A stretch of 64,000 nucleotides of DNA from Amoebophrya sp. A120 (Eukaryota; Protista; Dinoflagellata), in NCBI GenBank assembly GCA_905178155.1, contig CAJINV010000009.1, positions 1,103,415 to 1,167,414 of the forward strand, read 5' to 3'. Every line of letters starts with the position of its first letter. The stretch's first letter is position 1. Shown here piece after piece: positions 27,801-57,597 of this stretch. Under the pieces are notes generated by a model, which saw only the letters and a program-made list of their open reading frames with translations, was not told the DNA's origin and did not search any database. A program made the translations under genes and the position numbers.

Positions 27801-28118
27801 TTGGCTAGACGCAGATCTCAAATCAATGACCTATTACGTACGTTCCAATCCTCTCGTGTATGTTGCGAAACCATGATCCGAGACAGAGCAACAAAAGGAA
27901 CGCCTCTGTCAAACTGAAAAATCGGAAAAGAAAGAACACGAATCTGAGTGTAGTTGCTTGACTGATCCTCCACACAAGAAGAACTCCATGACGCGTGTAT
28001 CTTTTTCCGGCTGCTACTTTAGGGAACACTTCCAGAAACTATGGACATGAAGGGCAGCGCCCAGGGACATGACAGCAAAGCTTGTACTTCCTCACGAGCG
28101 GTGGAATTGTTTCATTTT

Positions 28119-31100
28119 CTACTCCTGCGCAATAATCCACTTCATGTTCATGCTCAGATCGACGATGGATTCCCGGGCGCCCGTGCCTCTCCCAGTAGCG
28201 GAGGCGAAGTTGTGGTGCTGGGATCGCAGTAAATGATAGCGATCACCTATCACAGACCACACAGCAGGTGAAGACGGAAATTCAATTTATTGCATACTTC
28301 CATCTACCACAACGATTCCCTCCCTGCAAATATCAATCTTCAAACTCGCCCTCAGTTCCCGAACTTGCGGGGACTTCGATTTTCCAAAGCTTGTCACCTA
28401 GCAGAGACTCGTCCTCGTCGAAGAAGTTCCCAATATCCGAGTCATCGTCCGCATAGTTTTCAGTACTACTTCTTCTCCGCCGCCGTACTACATTCCCGTC
28501 GTCGTCCAGGATCTCCTCTTCTTCACTGCTGCCCTGAAGCAAGAACTCCGGGTCGCCAATCTCGGGCGCCAGGCGCGGAAGCCAGTCGCGTTCCTCGATC
28601 TTCTCTAGGACCTCGGACTGCTCTTCCCCGCAGAATAGCAAGTGCTCACACACCTGGTCGGGCCGGTTCAGATCCCCGGAGGCCTTGCGAATCTCGCCCA
28701 CGAAAATCGGCGTCTTAGGTTATCCATGGGAAAATACAGTGGGTCATCCCGAACACGAAAAACAAAAAACCGAAGATATGAAATATGTATTCATAACCAA
28801 CGGATGCAAAGACATGAAACAACATCTGCAACATCAGGACGTCTTTCTATCTTCTGCCTCCCGCGAGAGTAAGTTGCTGCAAGACTCTGATTTAGGTTTG
28901 TCGTGCCGGACTACAACCTTTTGCTTTCGAGGATACATCTAGAAATATCTCCATGATGCGACATCCGCGGTTGGCGTGTAGTCGCGACCTGCGTGTTGCG
29001 GTGGAGGTGGCATCATCTTCAAACGAAAACTCTAAAATCAAATCTCCGGCAACAGTTGAAGGCATACTTGAAATCAGATCACTCACTTCAATCAAAACAC
29101 CAGAGGTCATGCCAAAAAACATCACGAAGAGATGAAGGAGAAGCAGTTTTGTATGTACTTGTTGTAATTCCAGATGCGGATCATGCTGACGCATTTCTCC
29201 TCCAGAAGGTCCACCATCACGGTGTGGGGCTTGCCGCAGCGAAAGGGCGCCAGCCAGACGTGAAAGTCGTCCCGCGTCAAATTCACCTGGTCGAAGAGTT
29301 TGTCGGGCGTCCGGGGGTCCAGCACTTGTCCACTGTTCGGCCCGTGCAACACGTTCACACTGTCGGGCTCCGCACTTACCTGATTTTCCACGTCCGGGAG
29401 GACCACGAGCTCGCCCTTATCATCAAAGATCTCGATTCCAGCCAGCCCCACAAAGTCCGGATCGCCCCAGGTGGATGCGCAGTTGAAGACCAAGAGTTTT
29501 CCCCGAGGCAACGTCGGCATCACAAGGGGGATCGCGGGTCGAGGATTCATAGCCGTTGTTGTATTTTGCGCAGTACTAGTGACCCCCGGGCTGCTTTCTA
29601 CTACTTCTGCCTCCGAGTTCGGCGCGGTATCTGTGTAGTACTCCGGCGGCAGCAGGGAAGCACCGACACAGTTGTGGTCGATGGCCGAACCGTCGTAGTA
29701 GCTCCCTGCCACAGCGGAGTCATTGGCCAAGTAGTAGTCCGCCATGGCGTTCGGCGGGGAGGGGAGAATGCCCGGCTCTCCGCACTTCTCGGCCTCAACA
29801 CGCAAATGCTTGAAGTCCTCGTCCTCGCTGCTGCTAGACGCGCTGCTCTTCGGTACGCCTGCCCGCTGCAGCGCAGCAGCTGGCAATGCGCCACCTGCTC
29901 CTTGCTGGAGCTGCTCGCGTCGAGAGGGCCGAGCGTCGGGTACGACAAGCGGGGGGTTGCCTTCGCTGAAATTAGTGCCTGTGTTTGAGGCGTTTGCGGC
30001 AAACGAGGGATCGTAGAGCAAAGCTTCGTGATCGTCCACCGTGGGCATGGAATTACCAGTTCCTTCTTCATTCTCCGCTTCGTTCTCAATTTCGTCGAAC
30101 CCAAAGTCGTATGCTGCTCTTTTGTTTCCGTCCCCACCACCCGCTCCCCGCAACGGCTCGAAAAACTTCCGACTTGCGGACTTCTCCAAAGCGTCAAAGC
30201 TCGCAAGCATGGACTGCTGGTGGCGATTTTGGGTCTTCTTATTCGAAGCTACCGGCGAGGAAGTTGTGCTGCGAGAAGGGGCAGCCGCAGAGATGGAGAG
30301 GGTGTTGGCATTCGATCGATGCTTCTTCTGCTGTTCCTTGTCAAGAAGTTTGTCTTCCTGTTGCCGTGCGGAGGTTGCGGGAGTGGCCCGTGATACGCCC
30401 TCGATCAGCATCGGCACGGGCTGCTCGGTCTCGTAGACAGTCGCGTCACTCGAATTCGGGTCACTAGAGACGAGGTGGTCGCTTTTTTTATTAACTTCAG
30501 GTTGAATGTGCTGGTGCACTGCCAGACTGTACACCTGCTCTCCACTCGCAGCGGGTATGCCGCGGACGCGCGCGTGCAAGACATCACCCTCGGCAGTGAG
30601 CAGATTCCCGCCGGTTGCCCCGCTGAATTGCTCAGTGACGATCGTGGCAGAGACGTCCGCGTCGCACAGCGCTAGAATCGCAGAACTGCTATTTTCCAGC
30701 GCGATGCAATACGAGTCGTCGGAAGTAGAAGTGTGGCCATTTGATGTCGTGGCTTCAGGAAGGTCTGCTTCGAATCGGAGAACGAAGCTCCCAGTTGCTG
30801 CAGCGGTCTTTCCACTCCAAGATGACAGTAGCGTTGTGCTAGCCGTCTTCGAAGTTGTTCTCCTCCTGAACAGCCTATGCAGTGTCTTTCCACCTTCCGT
30901 CAATCCGGTCGCCTGGATGGTTTGCGGCCGGACACGACACACCTTCCTCTTCTCGTCGCTGCTAGTACAACGACCCCCACTGCTGGTGCGATAAACTTTC
31001 ACCCCTTTCAGCTCGCATGCGTAGCCGGATTGGCTGTGGTTGCACAAGACTGCAAGTTTGACCTGCAGTCTTCGCTTCGAACCCACACTGTCGGGCTCGT

Positions 31101-33444
31101 CCTCTTCATCGTCAGAATTTTTCGTTTTCAGCTTCTCGCCCTCCTCCGCCATGTCGTTTTTCTCCTCGTCATTCGCCCCGACCCCGCCACCGTGCGTCCG
31201 GCCTCCGGGATTCGCACCGTCCTCCGGGCCAATCGTGCCCGATCCGGAACTTCCGTTCTGCTCCCTTCCGTAGCTCCCGTCATCCGCTGCTATCGGCACT
31301 ACGGCATCCGGCTCCGCGTTCTTGCTACCCCCAACACGGCTCAGACACGATCCGTACTCGGTCGATCCCGGAGGTTCTGCACTGTTTTCGTCGTCCCCGT
31401 TTTGTTCATGCGGAACAACTTGGTCGTCTTTCGGCTTCATCTCATCATCTCCAGCACGATTCCAAGTCCACTTCTGCTCGACGACTTCTTGATTGTTTTC
31501 CTGCATAATCCGCGGCAGGTCCCACCAGTGGTCGAGAAGCTGCTCCAGCGCACGTTGCTTTTCCTCATCCAATTCTTGAATGCGCTGAATCAGACTGTCC
31601 GTCTGTTGACTGCTGGTCGACCAAGTGCGCATCCGCGGGGTTTCCTGACAGTCGTGTTCTCCCGCGGAGAGTCCTGGAGCATGTTGTTTCTCGTCGTTTA
31701 CGTCGTTGGGATGACCTCCTGTGAGTTGACAATCACCACTGGGAACCGGGACGACGGGAACCGGGAAATAATGATCTCCTGCATTTGTACGAACTGCGAC
31801 AGTCGATCCGGAACTTGTGTTCGCGTCGCAGCTCGTCGAGACGATCTCCGTGTACTCCACGTGCACTTGGCTCATTCGGCTCCGTGGGCGCGAGCTCACT
31901 GCGGAAGGTGGCCGGAACCTCTCGGCCGTCCGGTCGTCGATCGGTAAGCGCGGTTCGGTCGTTTGCAGACACTTCTGGCCTGCACGACTCGTAGATGACA
32001 CGACCGGCACAGCAACCTTGTTCATCTCTGGGGGCTCAACTTGCACATCCACACTTGTTCTCCTACTGGCGACCGCGGACGGGGGCCGCAGGGCTTCTGC
32101 AGCTGAGGCACTGACGGGCAGTCGCGATTGCGTCACTTCGCCGTGGACCGAGCGCTTGCGCTCTTGCGCCATGGCAGCCTGGTTTTCCGCGGCCATGGCC
32201 GCAGCAATCGCAGAGAAATTTGTGTCTTTTGGTTCTACGTCCTTGGTTTGTTCCGCTTGGTCGTTTGCGTGCTGTCCAGCACCAACGGCGCTAGATTCTT
32301 GAATGATGCCTCCCTTTCGCGCACTGCATCCAGCTCCCGTGGAAGGAAGGAACTCAAAGGAGTTCCCCATCAGCACCTGTTCGTCGTCCGTCTCGTCCGC
32401 ACCGGCCCGGCCGCCGTAATACGGCTTCCGCGTGCTGTCTCTTCTCAAGTCGTCCAGGCCGAAGTCCTCCTCTTCTCGAGCGATGGCTCTCTTGTCCACG
32501 GTCGTCGGAGAGGGTACGGATCCGGCTGCCCCCTGGGGCTGGTGTCCCCCAATAGTCGGTAAGTTCGACCTCGACAAGCGCAGACTGGCACGCACCTTTT
32601 CCAGCGCTTCCGTCGGTGCGGTTTCCAGCATTGTTAACACGTTGACGACGTCATCCGATACCGCTTTTTCGTGCTGTGTTCGTCCCCCGGACGTTGGGGA
32701 CATTGACATCTTTGCTTCGTTTGGGGACGATTCTTGCCCAAGTTCTTCGTCGTAGTCCTCTTCGTCCGGCACAATAGGAAGGTGAAGAACGTGGTGAGCG
32801 CTATTGCTAGTACTTCTGTAGTGCCCGTCTTGTGTAGTTTCCGGATCAACCGAAACTTGTTCTCCAAACGGCGATAACTTGATCAGCCTGCCGTCCTCCG
32901 CGCGCAGCTCGACTGTTTCCTTTTTCCAGGACTTCGGCGCCGTAGCCGTTTTTGCTTGCTGCTGTGGGATTATACTATTTGCGTTCATCTGTGGTGTCGT
33001 TGACGCGACAAAATTTGGGACAAAGTGCCTGGCGGTGCTGGAGCTACTGGCTGCGGCACTCGCGCCGGTAATCACGGATTGCGGATGGTGCGGTGCTACG
33101 GATTGACTTGCGGGACCGAGAAGCGCACTCTGCCCCACAACGCCAAAGGCACGATTGGGCCTCGTGCGGTTATGCTGCATCTGGATTTGCTTGTTGCGAT
33201 GCAGCAACCTCTCCTCGTTGGCCCCGTTGATGTGCGTCTGGAATCCCTGTTCGCGCTTTCGCACGAGCTCTTCCTTCCGCTTCCGGCGCTCAAGGGAGAG
33301 CTGGATTTTCTGGCGCTCCGCGACGAGTTTCCCAAAGAGAAAGTCGTCGCCCGGTGAGACGGGTGGGCCATCGTGGCCTGTGCCCAACTCCGGGTGCATC
33401 GGAAGATGTACTGCGGCGGTGGAGTTACACGCGTCCGTTGTCAT
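28119..33444 (-). CDS. KATNIP/KIAA0556-like protein with a C-terminal DUF4457 domain
   Basis: Motif LPRGKLLVFNCASTWGDPDFVGLAGIEIFD...TRDDFHVWLAPF...SMIRIWNYNKSRLHANRGCRIMEIFLD...IFVGEIRKASG. Introns at 28989-29158 and 28714-28936 (GT-AG) and 28247-28349 (GC-AG). Confidence 0.85.
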
Positions 33445-33983
33445 CGCAACGTCGCACAAATGACAAAAATCAAATTAACGCAAGTAGCAGCTGCGGACTC
33501 ACTTGTCAACTGTTCAAAGCTTTCTTATTCTTTCGCGTGTCGTCGCTGGCATTCGTCTCTCGAGATTTTTTTCATACGCATTGACTTTCTTCTAACAAGC
33601 CCGTCCCCCCACCCCAAAAATATCCATCGTACCAGCGAAAAGCAAAAACAATTTAGCCTTTTTTCTCCCTCTTTAGTCAGAAGTTGGGCAACAATTAAGC
33701 TAGAAGGAAATCAAATCATAATCACTCGTGTTTTCACACTGAACACGACGAACACACAGCGCCAACTAAAGGACCAGAGGACCGGTCAGACCAGTAGCGC
33801 CTTCTGAAAATTTTCCTCCTCCCCACACGAGCACAGCCTGTCGGCGATGTCTACAGCCATCGATTCTTTCTTTCCTCCGTAGATTTCCCCTAGGAATACC
33901 ACTTTGCCCACTCAGTCATTCCCGTCGCGTTGCGTAAAGAAGACTTGACAGTAGAGCACAGTTGCCAGCAAAGATCTACTTTG

Positions 33984-36900
33984 TCAACTTGCTTCCTCGG
34001 AAATGGTTGACATGGACCGCTTTTTGAACGGAGAGCGACGGATCTTTTCGAGTTCTTCTGCCAGGGAAGGCTCCAACAAGTCTCCGTGCAGGTTCAGATT
34101 CAGTGCGAGCCTCTCCGGTCGGCGCAGCACAGCCTGTTGAAAGACGTGTTTGAAGAAGTCTGTAGGCAGCAAAATTCTGACCTATGGTCGTGCACTGATT
34201 TGTTCAAACGGACCTGCCAACACTTTTCCTTTGAACGTGGTTCAAATTTGTTCAAGCAAAATGCTCAAGCGTACCTCTTCCTCCCCGCCACGCAAAACTC
34301 CGCCCAGCTCCGTCTGCCACTTCTTGAATTATCAACTGTAAAAGTGTCTGGGTCTGGAAGAATGCAAGTTTGTCATGCTTGCCTGGCATGACTCGAGAAT
34401 CTGTGTTGCATAGGCACGAAAAAGCCCTCTTACCTGTCATGCAAAAAAGCAGTTTGCCATGCGAAATGCGTAAGACATGGCAGTCAAAAAATTTGTCATG
34501 CATAGCTGCGTATTGCAGTGCGTCTATCATTCATTTTTAGCATTACAAGTTTCCAGACCCAGACATTTTTGCATTTGATATGAATTCTTCGTCGGCAAGC
34601 TTGTCCATTTCGGATTCTTCCTGTTCCAAAATGGTGTCCAGAGTCAAAAACTCCTCCCTTTTTTGCGCTATCATGTGGAAAAGTTTCCTTGGGCATGGTC
34701 CGCATCAGAACAGCTCGCTCCGAAGTTATTCATCATCATCATCATGAGTTGCAGATAATTAAGTATGTACAGCAGATTTTGCCAACAAATTGGCTCTGTC
34801 TTCATTATCTGCAACGAGAAAGCGAAAAACAGCACGCTGCGTCACTTCACGACGATTCTAGTTTATGCAAGTATACGCCCCTTTGCAGATGGCCTCAAGC
34901 ACCGACCTCCGCTGAAGATGAAGAAACCTTTCCGTGTGATAAGCGCTTCTATTTCTTCCTGAACCTTTTCGCCGTGCAGCATCTCCTCCCGCTTTATGCA
35001 GTCTTCGTGCTTTTGAATGGCTCGGGTGAACTTTTCCAGCTGCGCTTTGCTCTCGTCCAGTAGCTTACTGGCGCCCTGCTGAAACTGCTCGACCAGCTGT
35101 AACTGCTCCTGCTCCCAGTTCAGCAGCTCAGGCTCCTTGAAGAACCGGCGCTTGTTCGTGCCCGTGTGGTGAGAAAGCTTCTCGACCGCAGTGGACTTGT
35201 CGTGCGCTTCGAGCAACTGCAGCTGCTTGTTGTTGGTTTGCAGGATCAAACTCTTCTTTTTCAGGGTATTCTCGAGATCATCCGCTGTTTTGATGTTCAC
35301 ATGTTGTCGTGTATTCACTGTCGTGGCAGCATTTTGATCCTCGGCGTTTGCCGTTCCCTCAGTATCCGCGTCAGGCTGGTTGTCCCAATCTGCTTGATCG
35401 GCCGCGGCGCCGTCAACCAAAACATCTTCCAGCTTCAGCAGAAATTCCGCGTCCAGCTCGTGGCTCATGCCTTGCCGTGCTTTGCTCGGACTCTTGTTCG
35501 CACCATTTCCAGTTGTTGCGTTCTTCCACGCGATCGGCACCGGCTCGTCGTTCAGAAACGCCAGACACTTAAATTTGCTGCCTTGCTTTATCACCTCGAG
35601 GAATTCAGGCTCCTCGGCGTCTTTCTCCTGTTCTTTTCTGATTTCCCCTGTCTCCTGTAGCTGCTCAGATGGATGATCATCTCCATCGACTGGTTCTGCT
35701 GGATCACTGGTTGCTGCGTTCTTCAACTCAGGCTCCGTGCCCGTGGTCTTCTGATCTGCATTTCTTGGGTCATCTTCGCCTTCCCGCTGCTGTTCTGCTC
35801 TTTCAGCTTCATCTTTCACCACATTCATATGCAATTCCGCCAGGGTTTCCCCGAAGTTCTCCGCGATCTGCGACACGACCTTCGCTGTCGGCCCGACCAG
35901 CGGGTTTCCCGCCAAGTCCAGCGCCTCTAGACCCGTGAACACTTGAGTATTACAGGTGCCAGAAAGCTCGTTCGCGGAAGATCTTGCAGTGTCAGCAAAA
36001 CGACCGTCGTCACTTTGTTCGGGAAAAAGCGCACGAATCCCGTTGTTGTTCAGAAACAGTTCGCGCAGCTCTGGCAACGTCGCCTGGTTGTGCGTCGCTC
36101 CTGCTTGTTCCGATGGCGGCGGCGGTTTCTTGGACGATTGAGGATCTGCTGACGAGGACGAGGACGTCGCACTCCCAGACGAGGGACTTGTGGAAAGCGA
36201 AGTGATTCTGTTCTGCACCAGACTCAACGTCATCAGGCGTGGCATGGTCGGGACCCGGACTGGCTCGTTGCTCAGGCTATTTGTGTTGACAGAACTTGTT
36301 TTATTCGCCCCTTTGCTGAAACTCTGCGCACCCAGCGATCCTTGGGTCAAGTCGACGGGTCTCCCGGTTCCACTTGTTCTGTTCATGATCTCCGCAGAAT
36401 TTGTACCAGTACTATTTCCTGTGAGTACCACTCCTAGCTCCCCCGGGGTTTTCTTGGTGAACAAGAAGCTCAGGTTGTCGATCTGGTTGAAGTCCAACTC
36501 CAGTTCCTTCAGCGCCGACAAGTTCCCTAGTGCCTTGTGCAGCGGCACAAAGGTCTTACTCAAGGCCAGTTCGCTGATGGAGGGCCGCTGCAGTGTAGTG
36601 GATTCTGATGCGCGCGACGAGAAGGACACCGCAGCGCTGGAACTGTGTGACGAAGACCGCCCACTGCGTGCGGTCGACAGCGGCGTAGGACACACTGACG
36701 AAGCTACGGACTCGCCCTGATCCTCTCCTCGAGATCCAGCACTCGAGAGCAGAATTGAGCCGATTCTGTTGTGGTTCAGACACAGCACTTCCAACTTCGG
36801 GAGCCACTGCAGACTGGTTGACAAGTTCGCGATACGATTGTGCGACAGGTGCAACTCTTTCAGGCTGGGCGGAAAGACGGACCTGGCTCTGTTCCCTCCC

Positions 36901-38129
36901 TGTCGGCCCGTAGCCGCGTTGTAGCCTGCTCTTGATGTTCTGCTGGATTTGCCAAAACTGCTCCCTGTGCTCTCCTGCTGCGCTAGCAGCTGCTCTCCTG
37001 CTTCGCTGACCGTATCTAGTTGTGAGAGCTGCAGTTTCTGGCCCTTTCGCGTGAAAGAAGAAAGCAAGTTGACGCTACCAGCAGCGGACGAGAAAACTGA
37101 TGAAACACCGGAACCGGGTCGACTGCCTACAAGTCGGCTAGACGAGGCAGACACCGGGGTTTGCGCCGCGCTGCTCGCATTGCTCGGCGGTAGGGAGCTT
37201 TGCGCAGCCCCGTTGAATGCAGTTGCGCCAGAAGCAGCTCCGATATTCGCAGTCGCTGGTGTCGCGAGCAACCCCTTGGTGTCGATTTTGTTTTTGTCCA
37301 GGTTTAAAAATGTGAGCGACTTCAGGTTTTCGAGGTTTTGAACTTTCGCAATTTTGTTGTACTGCAGTTCCAGTCGCTCGAGAAACTGAAAGTGTTCCAG
37401 GTTTTCCATTTTCTCGATCTCGCAGGAATGCAGGGAGAGTTCCCGCAGTTGCACCAGTGGCTCCAGGTTCTCGATTTTACGCAGGTTGTTGCCGGACAAA
37501 TCCAATTTCCGCAAATTTTTCACGACGAGCTGATACTCGCGAATCTGCTCCACAGGGACCACGGGTACGATCGCTTGCTCCGTCGTTGCTTCCTCCTCTT
37601 TGTAGAAAAGCGGATCGACACTGTCGAGAAAGCTGAACGTTAATTCACACGCCGACTTGTCTTGCGAAAGGTTCGATTGCAAAAGCTTCGAGGTGAGCGC
37701 TATTTTTATCGCCTCCGGCTTTTCTTGGTTTTTCCTTCCGTTGCCAACCTCGGTAATTTCCTTTTCTTCCTCGGTGGAAAAGGTGCCGTCCTCCTTTTTC
37801 GCATCTTCGATGGCAATCCGAAACTCATCGCGAATCTGCTTCAGAGGCGACAACGCACCAGAGGTGTCGTCTAGGTCGGTCACTCTCGAAGTTGTGGTCG
37901 CGGTTCCCAATTGGCGTTGCGGAGATTTCGACCGGTTGGCTGGGCGCGTTCCTTGTCGCGCCGGTGATGCCGATCGGAGATGCTCTGCTGCATGGCTCGC
38001 AACACCGGGAGCCGTCTCTGCCACACCGGAAGTTTTTATATGCAGTGCGCTGGCTCCCGACGCGGACTTCTTCGGTGAAAAAGCAGACGCGCGTGGCACG
38101 TAGGCCCATTTCCGTGGCTGTTGCAACAT
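33984..38129 (-). CDS. Leucine-rich-repeat (SDS22-like repeats) protein with a C-terminal coiled coil; exons 38129-34928, 34667-34581, 34324-34275, 34181-33984
   Basis: Repeated LxxLxLxxNxI motifs (LRKLDLSGNNLRKIENLEPLVQLRELSLHSCEIEKMENL...). Two GT-AG introns plus one TIR-bounded non-canonical intron whose precise removal restores the frame. Confidence 0.85.
34330..34580. mobile_element. MITE-like introner acting as a non-canonical intron in the LRR gene; 30-bp TIR, 5-bp TSD TGAAT
   Basis: The left end TATCAACTGTAAAAGTGTCTGGGTCTGGAA (34330-34359) matches the reverse complement of 34551-34580, TATCAAATGCAAAAATGTCTGGGTCTGGAA, at 27/30 positions. TGAAT occurs at 34325-34329 and 34581-34585. 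Confidence 0.92.
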
Positions 38130-38926
38130 TTTTTCTCGGGTTCGCGTAGGAGGTACAATCGGAACGCTGAATAAATATCTCCCTTTGCGTGAGTACACAA
38201 TCACAAAAAAAAAGGCCAACCTTCCGTAATACGCAAGAAACCAAAACCAAAATATTCTTTTCTTTTATCGGTCGCGCCAAACCGGAGCGGCCGATTTCTT
38301 GTTTCCTCACGCACCAATCTCATCCGGAAAAAAAGCACAAATTTGACGAACTTCTCTCTGTAAAATTGCGCAGTTCGCTCACGTTGACAAGATCTCTCCA
38401 AAACGCACAAATACGAAATGGAAACACGAAGACACTAGTGATTTCTTTGATAAAAAGATGCGAAATTTACTATTTTGCGTGAAGGCTACAAAAGGTAGAC
38501 CCTTCGCCGTCTTTTTTTTTTTTGTGTATCATACGTTTCAATTCATTCCAATATTTCACCCGATGTTATCAGTGTCCAACAAAAAGTCCACATGTTCACC
38601 TGGTTACCAAATTGCTTTCACCGTCACAACAACGAGAAGATGGTCAATCTAATTAATGAAACCGCAGTAAAATATTCAACCATGAAAAATTAAATCGTAA
38701 AAATGCCCGGTTCCGTGTGTTTCTGAGCTTTTGCTTTTTGAAAAATATGGTGCCGAAGCACTATGACATGTGGGTGTGCTACTACTTATGTGAAAAATTC
38801 ACCGGATTTCAAAATCTGTCTGTGCGTCGTGTAAAGTTTTTAACAGTGTAATTCTATGCGCAAGCGCAGCTCACTTCCCACCCGAATCAACTCTTCCGTG
38901 CGACATCGTTACCATTGTGCACAATT

Positions 38927-40090
38927 TCACATCTTCTTCGTTGGCGATTGCACGTCTTTCCACTGGAATTTTGCCATGGTCTTGTCACCGACGTCAGCAC
39001 CAGCTGGGCTCGGTGGAATACTCCGCAGCTCTTTCTCCATGCCCTTCAGCCATGTATCTGTTACAATCATTTCACTTTTATTTTGCCATCCGACATTTTC
39101 TAATTCGAATTCCACGTGCGGGTGCGAGGTCACAAAATAAATGCCTGGTTTGACTGCGAGGTGCATTTGTTATTGCAGAGTAAGTCGTATACTCTTAGAT
39201 AGAATCAACATACCTCATTCCTGTTCCAAGTGAAACAAATTGAAACAATCCTTCTATACTTCGAAACATGTGACCCGGGTCTGAGCCCATGCTCATTTTC
39301 CCGCTTGACGCAGAAGTGCTGGCAGACCCACTGGTGCTGGCGGTCATTTTCAGCAGCGACTCGACCTTGTTGTCCGGAATCGGTACCAGGGAGCCCTTCC
39401 ACGTCAGCGGTTTGTTGTCCTGCTTCAAGACGTTCGGTCTCGCCGCGGGGTGAGCGAACGTTTCGACGTTGGCTCGGATGTAGGGCCGGGTGTCACGACG
39501 CTCGTGGTCGTGGAACACATACGCTTGCATGCACAACATGGTGGTCGACGCCGTTTATATGTGCGATGATGATGTACCCAGTGGTCGTGGGAGTGAAGCG
39601 AGACGTCAAAAAATTAGTAACGTTCGAGAAGGGATACTCTCGAATCCTACAAAGATGATGCGTGCTGTGGGTATCACTTGTTGTACTGCTTTCACAATCA
39701 CGTGAACTGTAGATAGGGATTCATCTTTTCTTCAGTTACTTCAGATGCAGCTGCAAAAAAAATAATGAGGGACAGTAAAGGCAACACCTGCGTTCATGCG
39801 AAAGAAAAACAACCGACTCCGTTAGGCACCGAAAAAGAAAATCTAAAAACACAGCTGCAGCAAAAAAATCCATTACCGATTGATTCTCTTGCCTGTCTTA
39901 CGCCAGACAGAAAAGTACCTTCGTCAAAAAATGCGACTCTGTCTACCGAGAAAATTATCTGAATTGATTCTTATTTCATGGTGGAAAGACACAAAAAAAA
40001 TGCGGGTACAACGATTCTATGGATTGCAATTTTTGGATTTGTAGAAACTCATCGCATGAAGATACCGATTAGCTCGAGTTTGTTGCGCAT
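38927..40090 (-). CDS. Hypothetical multi-exon protein (weak C2-like NPYLQFT segment)
   Basis: Short exons MRNKLELI / ESIQIIFSVDRVAFFDE / AASEVTEEKMNPYLQFT / IREYPFSN / RRDTRPYIR...MGSDP / GIYFVTSHPHVEFELENVGW... join through GT-AG introns. Confidence 0.5.
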
Positions 40091-40552
40091 CAACTCAAAA
40101 AAAGGCAACTTAGAAAATTGTACCGACAGGCCGTTCACCACCAAAAAGAACAGGTATTCTACATCGCGTACACACTGCGACAAAAAGGCTCGACTTTCTC
40201 GAGGGCAAACCTGCATTTTTTACTACTCGAACTGGGGAAGATAAAGAGTGCCAAATCTGTCGTGACGCTTCTTCGAAGAAAGTCGATGGGGATTTAAAAA
40301 TTCTTCAAGGGGAAAAAAATGTACAAAATGTTTGGGGAAACTTCTAATTCGTCACTTCTGGCCGGGCTTTTTGCAAAAGAATCTGTTTCGCGTCAAGGAT
40401 ATCGACATCTGCCTAATAACCGGGGATGAATTCTGGTGCAATGCCTTTTAAAAGTGAAAAATGACTGTGAACCTCGTACTTGATTTTTCATACTGATACT
40501 GAATAATGTAGCGAGAGAGTAATGCGTTTTCATAAAAAAACAAGTACTTTAC

Positions 40553-40677
40553 TGTTTGAATAAGTTGAAACCTGAAAAGAAAAAGTTGAACCTTGGTTCT
40601 GCCTGTTTGAATAAGTTGAAACCTATAAAAAAAAAGCTAGCGAGCCTGATACTTCTTGTTTGAATAAGTTAAAACCT
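40553..40677. repeat. Degenerate tandem repeat, three units of ~51-53 bp
   Basis: The core TGTTTGAATAAGTT(G/A)AAACCT occurs at 40553, 40604 and 40657. Confidence 0.85.
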
Positions 40678-40997
40678 GAGGAAGAGATTAGTCGTGGTAA
40701 AGAATTTGTGTGAACGGGATTCAAATTCGATACGGAGGACACGACTGCTTCTGCTGCAATGGGAACACGGCTTACACATCACTTTCTTACAAGGGGGACG
40801 AATTATTGCCTAGAAAACAAACTGGAACCTCTTCGATTTTCTAGGTGGTGGATGTGGGAAACATCGAAATACAATTAGTAACAACGGGGTTGTGGGGATC
40901 GCAAGAATAACGTGGTTGCAAGAGGAGGGCAAAAATTTCAAAAAGTCGCACCGCAGATATTATCAGCAAGACACTTACTCTCGTTTCCAAAACCTGC

Positions 40998-43900
40998 TCA
41001 GATATCGTCTATGCCGCAAAATCATCTGCACCAGTCACGACAAAACACACGCGATCGCATTCTACTGCTTGCCCTTTATGTTTGCGAGATCGGCCTTGTC
41101 AAATTTCGTTGCCAAGGCCACCGCGATGTTGATTTCCTCGTCGTCGATGGCCCGACGGCTCGCGCTGGAACTGGACCCGCAGAAAATCATGTCGCTGCAC
41201 CGTCCCGCGCCGGAGGGGCGCACTTGCACCCCCCGCCCGTTGCCACCCGATCGCGAGTTCTCGATCACGGCCGGTCGGATCACGTGGTGCACCAACAACT
41301 CCGTCAGCTCCGTGATTTGTGCGGACTGCCTCTCCAGCAGTTCCTGCTGTTGATTTACCTTCTCGCTGAGCAGCTGCATCTCTTGCCTCTGGTTCATCAT
41401 CCGTGGCTGCTGGCCCTGTTGCACTATGCTCGTTGACTGTCTCTGTGGTGAGAAGGGCGTGGCTTCCCCCTCCGCAACCGGTATTCTCTTGTTCCCGCCC
41501 TGCATCGGTGGGGGCAGGGGCGGCGCGCCAGAATTCGAGCCCGTCTCGTCCCCATTTACCAAGGTGTGGATCTGTTTTTTTTTTCACGATAAAATGAGGA
41601 TTTTTCATGAGAACGCGTCAGCTCCTTTCCCTGCTAGTTCTACATCTACTGCGCTATTAAAGTCATCGAATCACAAAAGTTTTCGGAGGGAAAGGAAATT
41701 CATTGAAGTGCTTACGACATCAATTTGTTCGGATAACATGATGAAGATAAAGCAAGTGTCAAATAAAAGGAGCAACAGTAAGCACCTTGGTTTCCAAGTT
41801 CGCGATCTTATCGACCATCTCGGCGTGGTCGTCGCTGAGCATGGTGTAAAGGGCCTCCGTAGCGATCTCGTTGGGGATGACGATGTCGGTGGCGTTGTCT
41901 GTGTCTAGGATTGCGCTGCGGATGACACGCTCGCTCTGCCCCTGGGGGATGTCGGGGATCATCTGTTTCAGTTTCTTCGGCGTTATCATGCGCCCCTCGG
42001 TGCGGATGAAGGCTAGGGTTTTGTGGCCCGGCACGAAAAAGTCCGGGTCCTCCAGCGAGCAATCGTTGCCGGAATTTATGTAGCACTCGCACGGCCCGCG
42101 CACCACCATCCGCCACATGAAGGTGTAGGGAAAGACCTCATTCGTGCTGTCCACGGCCGCTTTGGTGCTGTTGCCCTTGCTCTTATGTGCGTCCTTGAGC
42201 GTCTCTTGGTGGGCCGCGAAGGCGAGCGCGTGCCGCTGTTCCAGCTCCCGGCGGACCAGGATCCGGCGGTTGGCCGACCCCACCATGCGGTCCAGGATCT
42301 CGTCCAATCGCAGCCGCTCGCGGCGCTTGGACCGCACGTACCGCCCGAAGCTCTCCATCGCTTGCGAAAACAGCGTCTCCGCCTTCGCCGTCTCGTCGCG
42401 CTTCACCTCCAGGTAGGTCTCGAGGATGATGGCCAGCAGCATGTTGAGCATGATCAAGACGATCAAGAGGTGGAAGAAGGTGAAGTAAACCGCCGTGCCG
42501 CTCCACGATACCTCCTTTAGCTGCCCGTAGTCAAAGTCCCCGGCCACCATGCGCCAACACGAAATGATGGCGCGCTGGACGGAACTGTACTCGTGCACGT
42601 AATTCCCGAACAGAAGGGTGCCGATGACCGCGAAGGACGCGAACACCGAGCCGAAGACGATCATGAAGTGCAGAATGTCGCTGGCCGCCTTCCAGATCGT
42701 GTTGGTGACCAGGCCCAGGCGCGGCTGCGCGGAAAAGCCCTTGAACATGCGGCACATGCTGATCACAATGTACAGGATCGACTGCAGCTGCGCGTCCGCC
42801 ACCAGCGCCATGTTGGTTTCCACGCGGTCGTACAGCTGCTCGCGCCGCGCGGATTCCACGAACCCGCCGTTCTTCACCAACTTGCCCAGGTCGTCCGCCG
42901 CTTCGTTCAACAACACAAACCGCGCGATCACGAACCCGGAACTGATCATGATGGACCAGTCGACCAGGTTCCAGATCCCCAGGTAGTTCGACAGGAATTT
43001 GTGCGTGTTGCCCCAGTAGATCAGCTGCCGGCGGATGTCCATCATTTCGGAAAACAGAATGTACAGGTTCATCAGCACCCAGAAAATGTCCACGAACAGC
43101 ACGAACTGCATGTCGTCGAAGTTGAACATGCGGCCAAAGTCCGTCAGCCACTGGCTGGTAACCGTCATCTGCTTCCGGATCTGGCCGCCGCGGTAGAAAA
43201 TGAAGTGCATGGTCACCATCGAGATCGCGCCGTACGCGCGGTTCACGTTCACAAAGTCGACCTCTATCTTGTACGTGTCCTCTTTGATGACGAAGTCCTC
43301 CTCCATCTTCTTCAGCTGCCGCTCCAGCTGCGCGGCCGTCTGGTCCAGCTGCAGGTAGATGGTCTCCTTGCTGCCGTCGAGGTCGAAGGACCCCACGGGC
43401 GCGAGCTCCGACACGTCCTTCATCGGGAACTGCGCGTGCACGCCATACGCGTCCGGGCTGCTGTAGCAGCCGATGCTGGTGTCCACGTTACCGGTGGTGG
43501 AAAACCCGGAAATAATGTCGGCGGGGAGGTACTCGGTGCAGTCGCTGCCCGGCCACACCGGGCTGGACCGGTGGATGTTGATGCGCACGTCCGTGGCAAT
43601 GTGGTTGAACCGCATCAGGTCCGACGACTTGATCACCGGGGGGGCCGGGGTCGTGCCAAGGGTCGAGTTGTAATAGTTGGCCATGCCGCCCAGCTTAAGC
43701 GCGCCCTGCTCGGAAGAAACGTAGCCGGAGGTCAGCATCAGGGGCACGAAACCCAACCGCATAAATGAGTACCAGTCGCCGAGGTTGTGCACATCGACGA
43801 ATCCCTTGATGCCCCAGGTATCTGTTGAGAAAGAATTTTGTTGAATATCTTCAGTAACCACTTGCTACATTTCATTCATCGGCGCACAAAAATCGTGTAG

Positions 43901-44814
43901 GTTCTTTGTCTACATACAATTTAAATTTTGGGTACATCAGGTACAGCCTACTACATTAATACCGTACCGGTTCACTTACTCGTGCTTTATTATCGTTCTT
44001 TGACGCAACCAAACAAAAAGCAAAATAGAAGCTATACTCGTCGCATCGATGGCGAAGTTCGCGTTTTCCTGGACCCAGTTGGTCATGGACTCGGAGATGT
44101 CCATCTGGTGCGGCACCGAGAAGTGCCAGAGCACGAGAAACGAGAAGATGACCACCAGGCCGATCGAGCAGGGCAGGGTGAGACAGGCCTGCTCGTCGTC
44201 CAGCTCCTTTTGCAGCCACTCAATGAGCTCGATCTCCTTGATCCCCTCGGTCCGGGAGACGTAGTCCGCCTGGCCCCGCTTCTGCTTGCTGGTGGCGAGC
44301 TCTTTCATCTTCCGCTGCAGCAGGGACTCCTTCTGCATGTCCCGCATGTAGCCGTCCGCCTGGTACCCCGTCAGCAAGTCGTTCGCCATCTGCTTCACCT
44401 GGGTCAAGCTCGCTGTGTAGTCCGCGGCTTCCGTGGGAACCAACTCCGCCGTGTATCACAGTGAAAAATGCCCCCACCCCCAAAGTTGCAAGAATTTGTG
44501 CTGCGAAGTTTCCAAATGAAAACTTTCTGTCATGCATGAAAGGAGTATGAATCTTTCCGATGCAGAGTCTTGGCGTATATCGCATCGCTTGCATGACGAG
44601 CGCCGCTCTTGCTGGGATCTTTTGCAATACAAATTTTTGCTCTTCACGATTGGAAATCTGTGATGCTGGTACATGGAAGAGGGCGAGTGTTTCATTTGCA
44701 AAGGTTTGCAATACAAATGCTCCCAAGTTTGGGAGTGGGGGGCATTTTTCATTGTAATACCGTGTCCCCGCGGTTGCCGCTGTTGTTCAGCACGGACTGC
44801 ACTAAGGCCGCCAT
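40998..44814 (-). CDS. Polycystin-2 (PKD2/TRPP)-like cation channel; exons 44814-44761, 44449-44038, 43821-41786, 41571-41073 (+41008-40998)
   Basis: TM1, a large extracellular loop, YLGIWNLVDWSIM, RMFKGFSAQPRLGLVTNTIWKAASDILHFMIVF, pore CWRMVAGDFDY, and S6 LIVLIMLNMLLAIILETY. Introns at 43822-44037 and 41572-41785 are GT-AG; the last intron is a possible GC-AG at 41009-41072. Confidence 0.9.
44454..44759. mobile_element. MITE-like introner acting as non-canonical intron 1 of the PKD2-like gene; ~70-bp imperfect TIR, 5-bp TSD CCGTG
   Basis: The left end TATCACAGTGAAAAATGCCCCCACCCCCAAAGTTG... matches the reverse complement of the right end, TATTACAATGAAAAATGCCCCCCACTCCCAAACTTG... CCGTG occurs at 44449-44453 and 44760-44764. 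Confidence 0.93.
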
Positions 44815-46533
44815 TTTTCCGACCGGTTCGCGACAAAAAAGGAAGTAGTACGGGTATAAAAAAAACTGCCGTGCAGCTTCGTTCTCTTCCGGTGTGTCTG
44901 TCTATTCGAGGATGGAGATGGACGCGATCAACTTACGACCAACTGAGAGGTCGGTGGCAGCACGCGCCACAGCGATTCTTCTCTTGCCCGTTGCCGTCTG
45001 TTGTCGTTCTTGCGCGGCAAAAAAAAACTTACAGCCCTGATGGAGGAAGATGGAAACTCCAGTCCTGATTAATCAGTGCGCCGGACGCACCAATCTGGAG
45101 AGGACATGCCATGTTGATTGTCATATTTTTGGAAGAGGTAGATGTAGTGGTAAAAAAATTGCTATGTATCAATCCTCGCCGTACTACTTCCGCCTGAAGC
45201 TATAGAAGGAGTAGAGTAGAATCTATCGTGTCTACACGCAACGAGGCACGGGGAGAGACGTACTAAAAAATGGGGGTCGTCAAAGCGAACCTGGATTTTC
45301 AATATGCAGCAAAGAAATGCGCAAACTAAAAGTATTAACTATGACCAGAAATTCAACGTAGTTCTTGACGAAAACTGCATTCTTGAAGCCGGACGATTTT
45401 GACGAACGCATAATTTGGAAATCACAAGATGAACTCGAAATACTCACTTTGGGCGTTTTTCGTTTTTGATTGCACGGTCACGTCAGACAGGACGAATACG
45501 AGATGACACCGATCTTGCGGCAAAAGGAAAACCGACCATTTGCTTGGAATGGACGTTAGAGCAGCCAGACGAACAACATTGAAGATTTGTGTCAACGAAA
45601 TATACATCGAAACCACCGAGTCGGCCCTATACGAGGAAAAGAAAAAGAGACGATGAAAGATGCTATTCTGCGCACGCCAGAAAATACGACTTCATGAAAT
45701 GACACCATCAACGAACAGAGGCGGAGATGAATCAGGTCCATGAAGGCTCGAGAATGATTACGCACTCCAACTGCCCGCGCAAGACACTGCAAAAAAGATC
45801 TTTAGCGGAGTGCTATCACAATGTCGGCTGTTTGTACGCTTTGTTGTCTATTGTCATTATCGTACCATTGAATCAGAGGAAGAAGAAAGACAATCACAAT
45901 TCCGCGAACAGAATCGCGGCCTGCTGATTGCTTTTGAAATGTTTTTCTCTTCTCTCCCGAAAAGCAAAGGAGAGAACCTCCGCTAAAATGAATTTCAAGA
46001 ACTTAGGTTTTGCGTTTATTTCAAAAGATGTTGTAGAAGGTATGACCAAGTTCTCCATTCATATTTCGCATCGCAGCATCCGAAGTACCACAGTACTTTC
46101 AGAAGGACGACGCTAGCTGCACTACTAGCCAGAAGACATTGCTTCTCACATGTAGTAGTCCTATTCCGATTGCGACAATCAGCAACATACAAGCACATCA
46201 AGAATGCGAGCGCCCCACACGATTGCCCCTAGAGTCTGAATACAGATACATTTTACTTAGTACTGGAAAATCACGTCTACCTCGCGCAATTGAAAATGCA
46301 TAGTCGCAATCGCGACATGCTCTCAAACTACCACTACCTGATTGGTAAGCTAGCCGGCGGCAAAGACTATTTGAGAGGAAAGCCTATGGGCTTTCATCGA
46401 AAAACCGCTTCGGCCGGCGTTCTCGAGAATCGTGATTCGGAAGGTATATTTCGTGAGCCATACGACGTAGGAGGTAAGCCGCGATGCGCAGGACATGGGC
46501 CCAGCTGCGTCTTTCTCCAATAATGATGCAACC

Positions 46534-46891
46534 TCATTCCGTCGCCTGCTCCTTGTACAGACTCACATCGACCTTCTGTGCCTCCCGAAACTCAGCGAAC
46601 TTTTCCTTCGCCAAGGCGAAGTACTCCTGTGAGAATACATGTTGCAGCTTTCACTCTGTATTCGTTTTGCTTGCACAAATGACTCATTCATGCACACGAA
46701 GTTGTACACTTTCACAGACAGGTGCTAAACAGAAAGCGCAAATGAAGATTCCTACATATTCATCAGTGTCTTACCTTGGCCTTCTCGTAGGCCTGGTCGT
46801 ACACCGGCTTCAGCTGCTCCGACTTGTAGACTCCAATACTAGTGCCCACACCAGCGCCGACAAGAAACTCGAAGCAGCCCAGGGTGCTCAT
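46534..46891 (-). CDS. Small single-TM protein (~69 aa) with a glycine-rich N-terminal helix, loosely STMP1/YtxH-like; 2 exons
   Basis: MSTLGCFEFLVGAGVGTSIGVYKSEQLKPVYDQAYEKAK, then a GTAAGA...CACAG intron, then EYFALAKEKFAEFREAQKVDVSLYKEQATE*. Confidence 0.65.
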
Positions 46892-47558
46892 CTTCTTGTG
46901 ATCTTTTGGTTCTGGTTGCAAGCAAGTACTTAGTTCGAAGCGTAATCGGTCACTTCTCGTGCTTAGTGAAATTGAGGAGAAATTTGAGAAAAGAGTGACT
47001 TTAGGTCGCGACTCACAGTCGAAGAGGATACTGCAGCAAAGCCTTGATACCCAATTTATATTTTTTTTCTCATCATGTAAATATAACTGCGCTCTTGCAC
47101 AGCAGCACCGACAGTGTCGCAGCGGCTGAAAAAAGGATTGCAGCTTAAAAAAGAAACAAATTCCTCGCAGCTTCTGATTTGAAAGTGAGCGCAAGTGCAT
47201 CTTCCAAAAAAAACACAAGCAGAAAAAACAACGACAGTGAGCAAACGCAGCCCTGAAAGAGAGCGCACCAAGAAAAAACTTTTTTCGATGAACATGAAGA
47301 CGCCCTCGGTTGTCTTTGACCATGATTTTTTTAATCTTTCAACTGACCTTCCAGAACACCAGGCTCATGAGCAAGACTCGGCGAGTTGCAGTGCGCTTTC
47401 TTTTATTTGTGTCCTTCTTGCTTAGGAATAACACGCGTCGTGTAAGTACTCGACTACCACATTCTTGTCTGCGATGTTCCCTAATTATGCTTTGCGTTTT
47501 CGTTCAAGAACTTTGCTGCTGCGCATCGAAAGTGAAAGTCCGCCATGCTTCGAATATA

Positions 47559-48252
47559 TTAGATTTGACCACAGTCGGCGACCACGACAGGCTGTGATGT
47601 TTGTCCGGATTCCGAGCCAACCAGCTCGATTTTTTTGACGACGTCCATCCCTTCGATTACTGAGCCAAACACGGTGTGTTTCCCATCCAGCCACGAGGTC
47701 TGGACTGTACAGAGGAAAAACTGGCTCCCATTCGTGTTCGGGCCCGCATTTGCCATCGACAGAATACCTGAGACAAAAATTCGTTTACATCCCCCCAATT
47801 CACACCAATTTTGAACTTTGTTACATAGATTCTATCAAGTCCAAGTGAAGTCGGCTTCTTGTAAGGCCATGTTGCTCCTCGCGAGGACTCGTTCGGTTAT
47901 TCAAAAGTACAAAAAAAAGAACAACAAGCAGGTTTATTTTGGTACCAGGCCCTGTGTGTGTGAGTGTGAAGTTCTCGTCTGCGAATTTGGCACCGTATAT
48001 GGATTCGCCCCCGGTGCCGTTGCCGACCGTAAAATCGCCACCCTGGCACATAAAATTTGGAATCACCCGGTGGAACTTGCTTCCTCGAAAGTGGAGGGCC
48101 TTGCCGCTTTTACCCATTCCCTTTTCGCCCGTGCACAGGGCGCGAAAGTTCTCCGCGGTCTTCGGACACACATCGGCGCGAAGCTCCATTACTATCCTTC
48201 CGCACGAATTCCCACCTATCGCCATGTCGAAATACACCTTTGGGTTGGCCAT
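47559..48252 (-). CDS. Cyclophilin (peptidyl-prolyl cis-trans isomerase, CyPA type); 2 exons
   Basis: Motifs [32 protein letters not shown] and [15 protein letters not shown]...WLDGKH. GT-AG intron at 47768-47945. Confidence 0.98.
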
Positions 48253-48998
48253 TTTTTCACTTGTCCTGACCTAGTCAGCAGAGCAGAATTCCAAGTAACT
48301 GAATCAAGGTGCCAGCACAGAGACAGACCGACGCGACTGTCGTAGTGGCGTCGAAAAATGAATCCTGAAATGACTACGACCACTTCCTGCTACACGTATA
48401 CACCAAGAAAAAGTAGAATAGGCAGCTTTGGAGATACATTAATGAAAGTGAACCATCAAGACCGAGAAGACCGTGATCAAATCGCTATTTTAGAAAAAAT
48501 GATTTTTCTGCTGGGTCACAGTGCTGGCGATTTGCGTTATTTGAACCGGGAACGTGAGATCGTGCCTCTTCACTGCAGCGGGATCTCAGGCTGACTTTAA
48601 TACTTATTTTCCTGCCGAACAACTTGCTGCGGATCGTGGCTCCGCTTCAAACAAAACGTGAATGCCGCATCGTATCCTGTGGACATTGTTGTTTTCCTGA
48701 CCAGATCGGAAGAAAGAAAAGCAAACAAGCTAAGAAGCCATACACAAACGAGGCAGAAGTTAGGACGGGTTCATCTTGGCGAATGCGGCAAATGCACGTT
48801 TTCCGTGGCTGCTGATCCTGCTCCCGATGAACAGCCCTTTGATATAATCTTCGAACGGTGCTTCCGACGTAGTTGCTACCCACAGCAAGTTGATTTTGAA
48901 AATTTCAAAGAATCTCAGAAGCACAACTTCTGTTTCGCGCCACATTTCGTCCGCATTGTGATTTTCCGTCGGGAAAATATGAAGTTTCGATTTTTGCA

Positions 48999-50649
48999 TC
49001 AGTAGTAGCTGAAACTTCTCCACTCTAAATCTGCGACTTCGTCCTCGAAATCGACAGCCGGAGAAAACGACGGATAGCACCTGGTACGCCTTTCCAGAAG
49101 GGTCTGGCTCTTGCGTGCGATCTCTCCTAGTGTGCTCCGAAGTTCACTCAGGTTCTCTTCCGCAGAGTGAAGAAGACACCCATCCGCTTTTATTTCTCTA
49201 CCACCTCCTGTATCGTCTTTTATGTTGTTGCCCGGCTTCTTGGTTCCGCGCACTAGAAGCCTGCTCAGGTCGCGGACCGCCTGGCAGACCAGCTTGTCCT
49301 CGTCAGATCGAGTATCTATTTTCGGAAAATGATCCAGTTGCGCAAGGGAACTTCGCTCTTCCGGAAAAGATGATAAGGCTTCCTCATCGCTCGTCTCGTC
49401 CGCTCGCTGACGATTTTCGGGAAGACCATCATCTATCCCACCACACGTTCCGACGTCCGTCTGGCTCACCTCTTGCAAAGCCACTTTCATTTTGCTCGGA
49501 GCCAAAATTCTATTCCGAATGAGACGCGGCTCATCACATCTGTTCTTCACACCTCTTCTAGACGCCTCTTGCATGTGTGCGTGGAAGTGCGGGGCGTCGC
49601 TATCTCGTGCGAAGGCTGAAAGCAACTCTCTCGAGATTCTGCCGTAAACAAGCCGAAGGACCCGATGATATCGGCTGCCGTCGCCGCTCGCATCTTGACC
49701 AAGCGCTGTATGTAGCTTTGCTTCAGCTTCTGCTTCGGGAAGGATTCGCATGATGCCAGTCACTGTCGCATGCAGATCCACCAGGTCCAGCCTGCGTGCC
49801 CCGAGTGCCGGTGCGCAGAACTGCGATGGACGCACAATCGGATGCATGTTTGCGACGTGGGGGAGGAAATAACTTGATCGTATTTATAGCAAGAGGGATA
49901 CTAGGGAATCGATCTGTTACGGGTGAACATGAACGTGAAGTATTGAAGGCACCACCGAGGGAGTGGTAGTAGCGTTGGAGGAAAAATGCACTGTATTTAT
50001 AGGCCAAAAAGCGCCTGTGGGAAGCATTGCTTAACGCAACGACAACATTGCTCAGCCGTGGGACAATAAAAATAATGCCTGCTCGGACTGGTGGAAACAC
50101 AATGGATCAGATCACATATACATGACACAACCGACAAAATGGAGATGCACAGCAATGTCCGAGTCCCACAGAATACCTGTGTAACTTCCGCGGAATCAGA
50201 AACAGAATCAGGTAATCACGATCTCATCAACCGAACATTTTGATTTTAGCCGAGGGAGCCTCGTGCATGTTTAGATTGATGACAGAGGCGAGTGAAACCG
50301 ATTCCGAAGAACCAGGAGATGACCGAATGAGATGAAGATCCATCAAGACGCGCATTGCATCAAAGTGTGTGCTCAACGCTCTGCGCTTCAAAGAGAGCGG
50401 ATACGCAGCCGGAGTCGCCGACCGCGATAAGAAGGAACACGCATCCAACCAACATGCTGCAGGAGAATGGCTCAGCAGGTGCCACCGCCTTCTTGTGGAG
50501 CTCTTTCTTTGTGTTTCCTGTGGCTCAAACAATCCGTGTGCGCATGCGTACCGCGTCCATTGATCACATCGCTCAATGTAAAAGACTCGTTTGCCAATAG
50601 CACTGGGCCAAGCGTAGACACTTTCCCTCTCAGGGCGTGAGTAGGCCAC
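48999..50649 (-). CDS. Hypothetical protein; exon structure unresolved
   Basis: Protein-like ORFs at 48999-49847 (282 aa) and 50227-50649 with intervening splice-like sites. The full phase chain was not established. Confidence 0.45.
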
Positions 50650-50879
50650 ACGTTCTCATTAACGCAAACGTCTCTCACACAAACAGGGATGTATTTATTT
50701 CTCTTATGTTCGACACAACAGATTGCTGATTCTAAACTCGTACGTGCCGTCATGTTCATTCTTCACGGACTCTTCCAACTGACCAGACACAACGTCTGGC
50801 TGTCTCCAGTCAGGAGTCCAAGCCCGTATGTGGATTCATCACCTTCCGTCGAAAAAGAAGTGTTGGAAGCAAGCCCGAT

Positions 50880-51365
50880 TTAGTCGAACAGATCGAACTC
50901 CATCTCCTCCTCCTCTTCTTCCACAACTTCTTCCTTCTTAGCCTCCGCAGCCGGAGCGTCGCCGCCCGCGGCAGCGCCGCCAGCTGCAGCACCACCGCCG
51001 CCGCCACCGAAGCCCTGGAGCTGCTCACGGCCCTTCGCGATCACTTCGTGAACGACCTTACCTGTTGTGCAGTGATTTTGAAAATTTTCAATTCAGCTGT
51101 GTCTTTAAATTTTCGTCGCCGACGAAGATGATGCTTCTCTTTTTATGTCCAATTGTGTGGGAATGAAACTGATACTTACATGCGATTACTTCCAAGACTC
51201 TTCACTAAAAAAAGTACCCTTCATCTCGGAGATGAGCTTGTCAGCCAAAGCCGAATCAAATTCGCCGCCGGCGGCTTCGATGATCTTCTTTAAATCAGCG
51301 GAGGTCGGCTCGTCCTTGCCGGACAGCACGGTGAGGAGGTAAGCGGAAACGTACTTGAGTCCCAT
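50880..51365 (-). CDS. RPLP2: 60S acidic ribosomal protein P2; 2 exons
   Basis: MGLKYVSAYLLTVLSGKDEPTSADLKKII...GKVVHEVIAKG...EEEEEEMEFDLFD*. GT-AG intron at 51062-51217. Confidence 0.97.
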
Positions 51366-57565: not shown

Positions 57566-57597
57566 GAAACAGTTGCAGACAGAAACAGTTGCAGACA
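57566..57597. repeat. 16-bp tandem duplication
   Basis: GAAACAGTTGCAGACA repeated twice. Confidence 0.8.

Follow-up and report, generated by a model that had tools for sequence, protein, structure and literature searches.

How is an element that resembles a transposon, lies inside coding sequence and offers no GT-AG ends removed from a transcript? This question is raised by a gene of the marine parasite Amoebophrya sp. A120 in the 64,000-nt stretch of DNA analysed here, which we call the window. A sequence-only reading had described a 251-bp element with 27/30-bp TIRs and a perfect 5-bp TSD inside LRR coding sequence. Our data indicate that the focal intron is transposon-derived, is removed without GT-AG ends and belongs to the Amoebophrya introner kind. 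Cut registers are written as two numbers, 1+4 meaning 1 nt before the first TIR and 4 nt after the second. The features of the locus are:

33984–38129 (approximate; start codon to stop), minus strand: host gene, an LRR protein of 1156 aa with a C-terminal helical region (CAD7959621.1 / GSA120T00004109001.1)
34330–34580, no strand assigned: focal introner, a non-autonomous TIR element of 251 nt, known from its TIRs and TSD and from further copies that share its 30-nt terminus
34325–34329, no strand assigned: 5-bp TSD copy, downstream in the transcript
34581–34585, no strand assigned: 5-bp TSD copy, upstream in the transcript
34326–34581, minus strand: focal intron of 256 nt in the probable 1+4 register, AT...TC; the length is shown directly and the register comes from neighbouring introns

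Measurement gave the element as it had been described: 30-nt TIRs matching at 27/30 positions, flanked by the perfect TSD TGAAT, in a minus-strand gene that does encode an LRR protein. This TIR pair ranks first in length among the inverted repeats of the window with spacing below 1.5 kb. The direct repeat is effectively 6 nt long, giving seven equivalent cut registers that yield the same mRNA (TA-CA, AT-TC, CA-TT, TC-AT, TT-AA, AT-TA and AA-AT). None of the seven is GT/GC-AG, in agreement with the earlier claim. Removal of 256 nt, the element plus one TSD, gives ...DKLADEEFKKWQTELGG..., and if the element is retained a stop codon is reached 13 codons inside it. Pairs of the form TAT-N7-AAA...TTT-N7-ATA, with a TSD match of at least 4 and a TIR match of at least 9, occur three times in the window, compared with 0/30 Markov shuffles. 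No second copy of the focal element was found within the 64-kb window.

A run search returned 12 runs, and X1 and X2 (contigs) and X10 and X11 (raw RNA reads) were mapped to 28000–47999. X1 and X2 are assembled contigs from one study whose RNA nature was assigned by guess. Contigs of both, that is 2/2 informative RNA-like runs, skip from 34324 to 34581, exactly 256 nt, so that the RNA alignment across the junction proposed with the sequence-only reading showed the expected skip. Depths of 11 and 27.2 are common to the focal joint, the canonical 34134–34274 joint and a 278-nt upstream skip, and equal depth with a canonical joint indicates that the X1 and X2 contigs are spliced RNA. Word shares of X1–X4 were 0.71–0.72, against 0.719 expected for fully spliced RNA, and those of X6 (0.95) and X7 (0.94) exceed the 0.895 that an empty site would give, an indirect DNA control for the focal element. 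On 44001–64000 the DNA-like run X6 gave no joints, and a single contig spans 44677–64000. X11 had 0 reads on 28000–47999. The 76 raw RNA reads of X10 match only the TIR at 34551–34580, with a different flank and a related interior, and 0 reads fall on exons in 20 kb. They represent a family member unspliced in RNA, and the culture they come from is apparently either not A120 or poor in it.

When the RNA joints are followed, the translated protein equals CAD7959621.1 / GSA120T00004109001.1 (Amoebophrya sp. A120, P0001) at 1156/1156 aa. This bears out the proposal that removing 256 nt restores the reading frame, and it means that the deposited gene model already excludes the focal element. The AT5.2 orthologue P0002 and the homologue P0004 align without a gap over the focal junction, and P0004 is also gap-free across the upstream junction (34664 to 34943). 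Both flanking exons had been expected to join their neighbours through GT-AG introns. This was right for the downstream side only; upstream, a TIR element that has no GT/GC-AG register is skipped. A GT-AG reading of that upstream intron was rejected, since it would insert residues absent from the deposited protein and two homologues. The neighbouring exons and introns are:

34134–34274, minus strand: canonical GT-AG intron, 141 nt (RNA joints)
34275–34325, minus strand: 51-nt exon downstream of the focal element (RNA joints, side 51)
34582–34664, minus strand: exon between the two introner introns (RNA joints, side 84, and spliced translation)
34665–34942, minus strand: second non-canonical intron, 278 nt, with element 34669–34941 and a TSD matching at 4/5; TT...GC in 1+4, with 0+5 excluded (RNA skip from 34664 to 34943)

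The focal intron fits none of the other intron classes considered. GT/GC...AG ends, as in U2 introns, are absent from all seven registers. U12 (AT-AC) introns carry an ATATCC motif; of the focal registers, the two beginning with AT close with TC or TA. The Euglenid pattern, N3-CDG...CH'G-N5-6 followed by a purine, is likewise absent, with TAT/ATA at spacers 1 and 4 here. Every tested feature of the A120 introners, to which the element had been assigned from Farhat 2021, was found. Both TIRs contain TAT, 7 variable nt and at least AAA; the 5-bp TSD agrees with the direct repeat of 3-5 nt expected where exon and intron meet; and the 256-nt skip is RNA-supported in X1 and X2 with ends that are not GT-AG. 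The element is repeated in the genome, as contigs of X1 and X2 with other flanks terminate at both of its termini and as 16 metagenome loci carry its exact 30-nt TIR. A hairpin is predicted at -88.4 kcal/mol (z = -3.7), with 2/200 shuffles equally good. The intron is of a kind already known, at a locus already annotated without the element.

The 16 loci (L001–L016) were located by searching metagenome data for the left TIR and lie in one assembly. The 15 complete family copies are 252–269 nt long, with a perfect 5-bp TSD in 14/15 and a 4/5 match in the other; L015, truncated at a contig end, was left out of the TSD counts. The family has the constant TSD length, TIRs, short length and non-coding content of a MITE. 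Judged by reading frame, L008 regains an SPFH frame and L010 a trypsin-like one when the element and one TSD copy are taken out, and L009 accommodates both orientations of the focal family in one open frame. The region 1501–2441 of L009 holds three TIR elements in one gene, the two focal-family members being in opposite orientations, and removing all three opens one frame. Pfam matches fix the orientation firmly for four loci, L004, L007, L008 and L010, all minus strand (76/235 ORFs scanned). A codon model scored known exons negatively, and its orientations of family copies were unreliable. Across L001–L016 the two TIRs differ consistently at positions 7 and 15, and interiors are only about 71–92% alike over their aligned parts while termini are near-identical. 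The element at 44454–44759 has a summed contig depth in X6 of about 5,000–12,000 per bin versus 26, suggesting a large young family. A loose PWM scan for further elements returned 91 pairs versus 22–57 in shuffles, too noisy to count.

Because a perfect TSD masks the position of the cut, the register becomes visible in introns whose TSD has decayed. Joints were taken from 28000–47999 and 44001–64000, which is 36 of the 64 kb of the window in one genome. The count leaves out 4/15 rows from the former region (three skips and one back-step within the focal element, likely from other copies), 3/15 repeat rows from the latter, and a join of 31152 and 43299 through 28 foreign letters, probably a repeat-driven mis-mapping. 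There remain 23 distinct joints, 11 GT-AG and 12 non-canonical. Besides the focal intron and its upstream neighbour, the non-canonical introns are:

28717–28936, minus strand: aged, GT...CT; registers 1+4 or 2+3 only
44450–44760, minus strand: young introner intron of a PKD-channel gene, with element 44454–44759 and a perfect TSD; present in high copy in DNA-like X6
52442–52666, minus strand: TT...CT; sole possible register 1+4
52879–53254, minus strand: aged, CT...AG (1+4)
53763–54016, minus strand: aged, GT...CC (1+4)
58370–58810, minus strand: aged, GT...CT (1+4)
58853–59083, minus strand: aged, GT...TA (1+4)
61594–61878, minus strand: aged, TT...CT (1+4)
62647–63287, minus strand: 641-nt skip over two tandem TIR units, 63110–63286 and 62651–63104, separated by 5 nt; the only registers possible are 0+5 and 1+4
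63389–63817, minus strand: CC...TT; sole possible register 1+4

All 23 joints and all examined genes in 28000–64000 are on the minus strand, forming a unidirectional gene cluster. Pfam identified a DUF4457 protein (29122–33474), a polycystin-type cation channel (41759–43864) and a cyclin (5702–6508); 15 ORF pieces of the genes at 44–62 kb had no Pfam match, and Rfam gave 0 matches in the window. Strong single TIR-like ends at 6586, 14874, 15863, 18000, 25446 and 26237 suggest further aged introners in the window at 1–28000.

In 12/12 non-canonical joints the skip length equals the TIR-to-TIR distance plus 5. The 1+4 register fits all 12, compared with 9 for 2+3, 7 for 3+2, 5 for 0+5, 4 for 4+1 and 3 for 5+0, and the joints at 52441 and 63388 permit 1+4 alone. 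The fit of 12/12 is partly built in, since the Y-A-Y and A-Y-M motifs were derived from the same 12 introns; this does not apply to the misfit of the other registers. By comparison with these neighbours, the focal intron likely uses the 1+4 register and would then have the ends AT...TC. The two tandem units of the 641-nt skip are each predicted to pair with themselves, with the outer ends unpaired, and the skip is likely to represent two back-to-back excisions around a zero-length exon.

Aligned in the 1+4 register, the 12 introns share bases at fixed positions. At the 5' end +2 is T in 11/12, +3 is A in 12/12 and +4 is Y in 12/12, with +1 free; U+2 is not invariant because one intron starts CC. 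At the 3' end T is found at -17 and at -15 (12/12 each), followed by G at -8 (11/12), A at -7 (12/12), Y at -6 (12/12) and A at -5 (11/12), with -4 to -1 free. The focal TIRs are the likely sources of these bases:

34551–34580, minus strand: first-transcribed TIR, TAT-N7-AAA type; likely source of the 5' splice signal from +2 onward
34330–34359, minus strand: last-transcribed TIR; likely source of the T-tract (-18 to -15) and G-A-Y-A (-8 to -5)

The 5' consensus N-Y-A-Y also starts 9/11 local canonical introns, whose donors are GTAY in those 9/11 and whose acceptors are CAG in 11/11. The 3' signal is not common to local spliceosomal introns, as the -7 to -5 motif occurs in only 2/11 of them and a T-tract at -18 to -15 in 0/11. 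Hybrid ends exist among the 12 non-canonical introns, five of which begin GT and one of which ends AG. A at TIR position 7 (+8 A) is present in 12/13 5' ends versus 3/13 3' ends (Fisher p = 0.001), the strongest contrast among 16 positions. It was rejected as a requirement, C being found there in L010, where the trypsin-like frame is restored, and in the first L009 copy; it may be a preference at most.

It had been suggested that the hairpin, and not the dinucleotides, defines the junction. Paired TIRs are indeed present in the predicted fold of the focal element (z = -3.7) and in those of two other young elements, one of them 44454. Among the 9 older non-canonical introns, duplexes between own partners exceed those between cross partners over 30 nt (p = 0.002) and 45 nt (p <0.0001), whereas own pairing is no better than cross over 14 nt (p = 0.26) and 20 nt (p = 0.12). 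An ungapped comparison at +2 to +14 gave no own-partner excess (p = 0.47), and the 11 canonical control introns also gave none (p = 0.54–0.95; 0.63 and 0.95 over 30–45 nt). A terminal stem is predicted in only 5/12 non-canonical introns, with almost no end pairing in 3/12 (52878, the outer ends of 62645, and 63388), and for the 28717 intron the predicted fold is no more stable than those of shuffled sequences (z = -0.4). Terminal pairs are disrupted by transitions in several introns while the fixed-position bases persist. The suggestion is upheld as to paired TIRs and the 30–45-nt pairing of older introns, and it is too strong in setting hairpin against sequence, given the weak terminal pairing and the persistent fixed bases. 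Short signals inside the TIRs that fix the cuts, with pairing as a help, fit better than a hairpin alone. The deeper pairing of older introns may be selected or may be a relic of the parent element.

As the explanation of all these data we lean towards cuts 1 nt before and 4 nt after the TIRs, read from short TIR signals by a relaxed major spliceosome, with the hairpin holding the ends. N-U-A-Y at +1 to +4 would be recognised in the way of the local GUAY donor, with a relaxed demand for G+1, and the 3' cut would be measured from the U-tract...G-A-Y-A and not from AG. The predicted hairpin likely keeps the intron ends together. A symmetric TIR could supply the 5' and the 3' signal in either orientation, while 4 nt of one TSD copy and 1 nt of the other would rebuild the target; a TIR with both signals might thus rescue insertions at nearly any target. 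A broader and more tentative proposal is that one splicing code serves all transposon introns of A120, cutting 1 nt before Y-A-Y and 4 nt after U-tract...G-A-Y-A with no need for G+1 or AG. Under such a code the symmetric TIR and the 5-bp TSD would make insertion scarless at any target in either orientation, tandem elements would leave one directly after the other with a zero-length exon between them, the variety of splice sites would be the target showing through, and the major spliceosome would set the 3' site without AG.

The same 1+4 geometry could be produced by a separate, non-spliceosomal machine, an endonuclease with a ligase or a Euglena-like pathway, that reads paired ends plus a short motif and frees a circular or linear intron. 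We consider this rather unlikely. It is in keeping with the TIR stems predicted for the focal element and 44454, with the intron-specific 30–45-nt pairing that survives in 9 older introns and is absent from 11 canonical ones, and with a 3' motif that canonical introns do not commonly share. Farhat 2021 reports U1 as not detected in A120 (PMC7789003), splicing in Euglena is described as depending on a paired motif whose spacers are fixed at 3 and 5-6 nt (PMC12501133), and a review passage has Euglena introns of similar geometry released as circles, not lariats. However, the 5' ends equal the canonical donor at +2 to +4, almost no end pairing is predicted in 3/12 skips, the GT starts and AG end found here are of a hybrid type described as rare in Euglena (PMC12501133), and the same repeat layout is reported in 15% of canonical A120 introns (PMC7789003). 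The agreement of the 5' signal with the canonical donor and the existence of GT-nonAG and nonGT-AG hybrids lead us to favour the relaxed major spliceosome over the Euglena-like pathway. A hairpin that alone sets the junction regardless of sequence, in a register that may differ between introns, appears improbable: a stable stem is predicted in young elements, a hairpin-ruler model also predicts the 30–45-nt pairing of older introns, and the legend of Fig. 3 in Farhat 2021 describes sites as variable relative to the hairpin (PMC7789003), but a single register fits 12/12, terminal 14-nt pairing of the older introns does not exceed cross pairing, and bases are kept at fixed positions where pairs break.

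That there is no splicing at all, the RNA coming from empty-site cells or following DNA excision, is very hard to sustain. An empty allele and a spliced RNA share one sequence, and the DNA joint check spans 44001–64000, with the focal element outside it. Yet 12/12 elements are absent from the RNA with no letter differences in the flanking exons, including old elements with decayed TSDs, where one would not expect an empty allele; X6 lacks joints in 44001–64000 and the word shares agree. Least credible of all is canonical splicing after RNA editing of the intron ends, or through hidden GT-AG steps. Dinoflagellates edit RNA, and GT and AG are present inside the element, but the joined sequence requires no edited letter. 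Table S5 of Farhat 2021 gives editing as possible in the first or last 2 nt of only 3% of A120 introns (PMC7789003).

The preferred reading, TIR-borne signals used by a relaxed major spliceosome, can be set against what has been described. According to Farhat 2021 (PMC7789003), more than 60% of introns in A25 and A120 are non-canonical and A120 has 29,850 repeated introns; A120 introner IRs start TAT + 7 nt + AAA with 3-5 nt direct repeats, and a hairpin was proposed. The focal intron resembles these in organism, IR, repeat, length (about 240 nt), repetition and RNA support; its TIR of 30 nt compares with motifs of 8-20 nt there, the kind being identical. In Table S4, 9/9 predominant A120 site pairs start NT and 9/9 A25 pairs start TT, and A25 repeats start TTA (PMC7789003). 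The same source reports nearly all spliceosomal proteins in A120, with U1 not found, minor-spliceosome snRNAs absent and no transposase found (PMC7789003). Some A120 introners have been assigned to TIR transposons (Gozashti 2025). Farhat 2021 states that the border position "remains unknown" or is variable and leaves the mechanism open, whereas one register holds for all 12 introns here (PMC7789003). The Amoebophrya literature in open-licence papers, a scope with figures S19–S25 of Farhat 2021 outside it, yielded no fixed register and no mechanism test.

Similar introns are described elsewhere (Fritillaria, core dinoflagellate and Euglena-circle background: PMC11282704, PMC13326754, PMC9860276, PMC12130899, PMC11453091, PMC12787238). 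Euglenid introns, like these, have no GT-AG, paired ends, a probable MITE origin and fixed spacers (PMC12501133, PMC11282704), and circular products are reported (PMC11282704). As differences, their motif is CAG/CTG, the spacers measure 3 and 5-6 nt and a purine opens the next exon, compared with TAT/ATA, spacers of 1 and 4 and any base here (PMC12501133). Introns of Fritillaria borealis are also MITE-derived and non GT-AG with TIR and TSD, and their removal by the U2 spliceosome is reported; their ends are AG-AC/AG-AT with an exonic TAC target and U1 is conserved, whereas in A120 the ends follow the target and U1 is reported as not detected (PMC11282704, PMC13326754). Introners of Micromonas, Aureococcus, Symbiodinium and Polarella share the TIR/TSD of DNA transposons and splice sites at fixed places of element or TSD, but need GY/AG from target or element, unlike the A120 introns, which need neither G+1 nor AG (PMC9860276, PMC11282704).

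The focal element alone matters little, being one of about 30,000 described A120 introners and already annotated. What is added here is the 1+4 register rule, resting on 12 joints. With a fixed register, both the intron ends and the candidate signals are specified, which allows aimed mapping of lariats or circles and tests by point mutation. If true, it would explain how a transposon could invade exons throughout this genome without GT or AG in the target.
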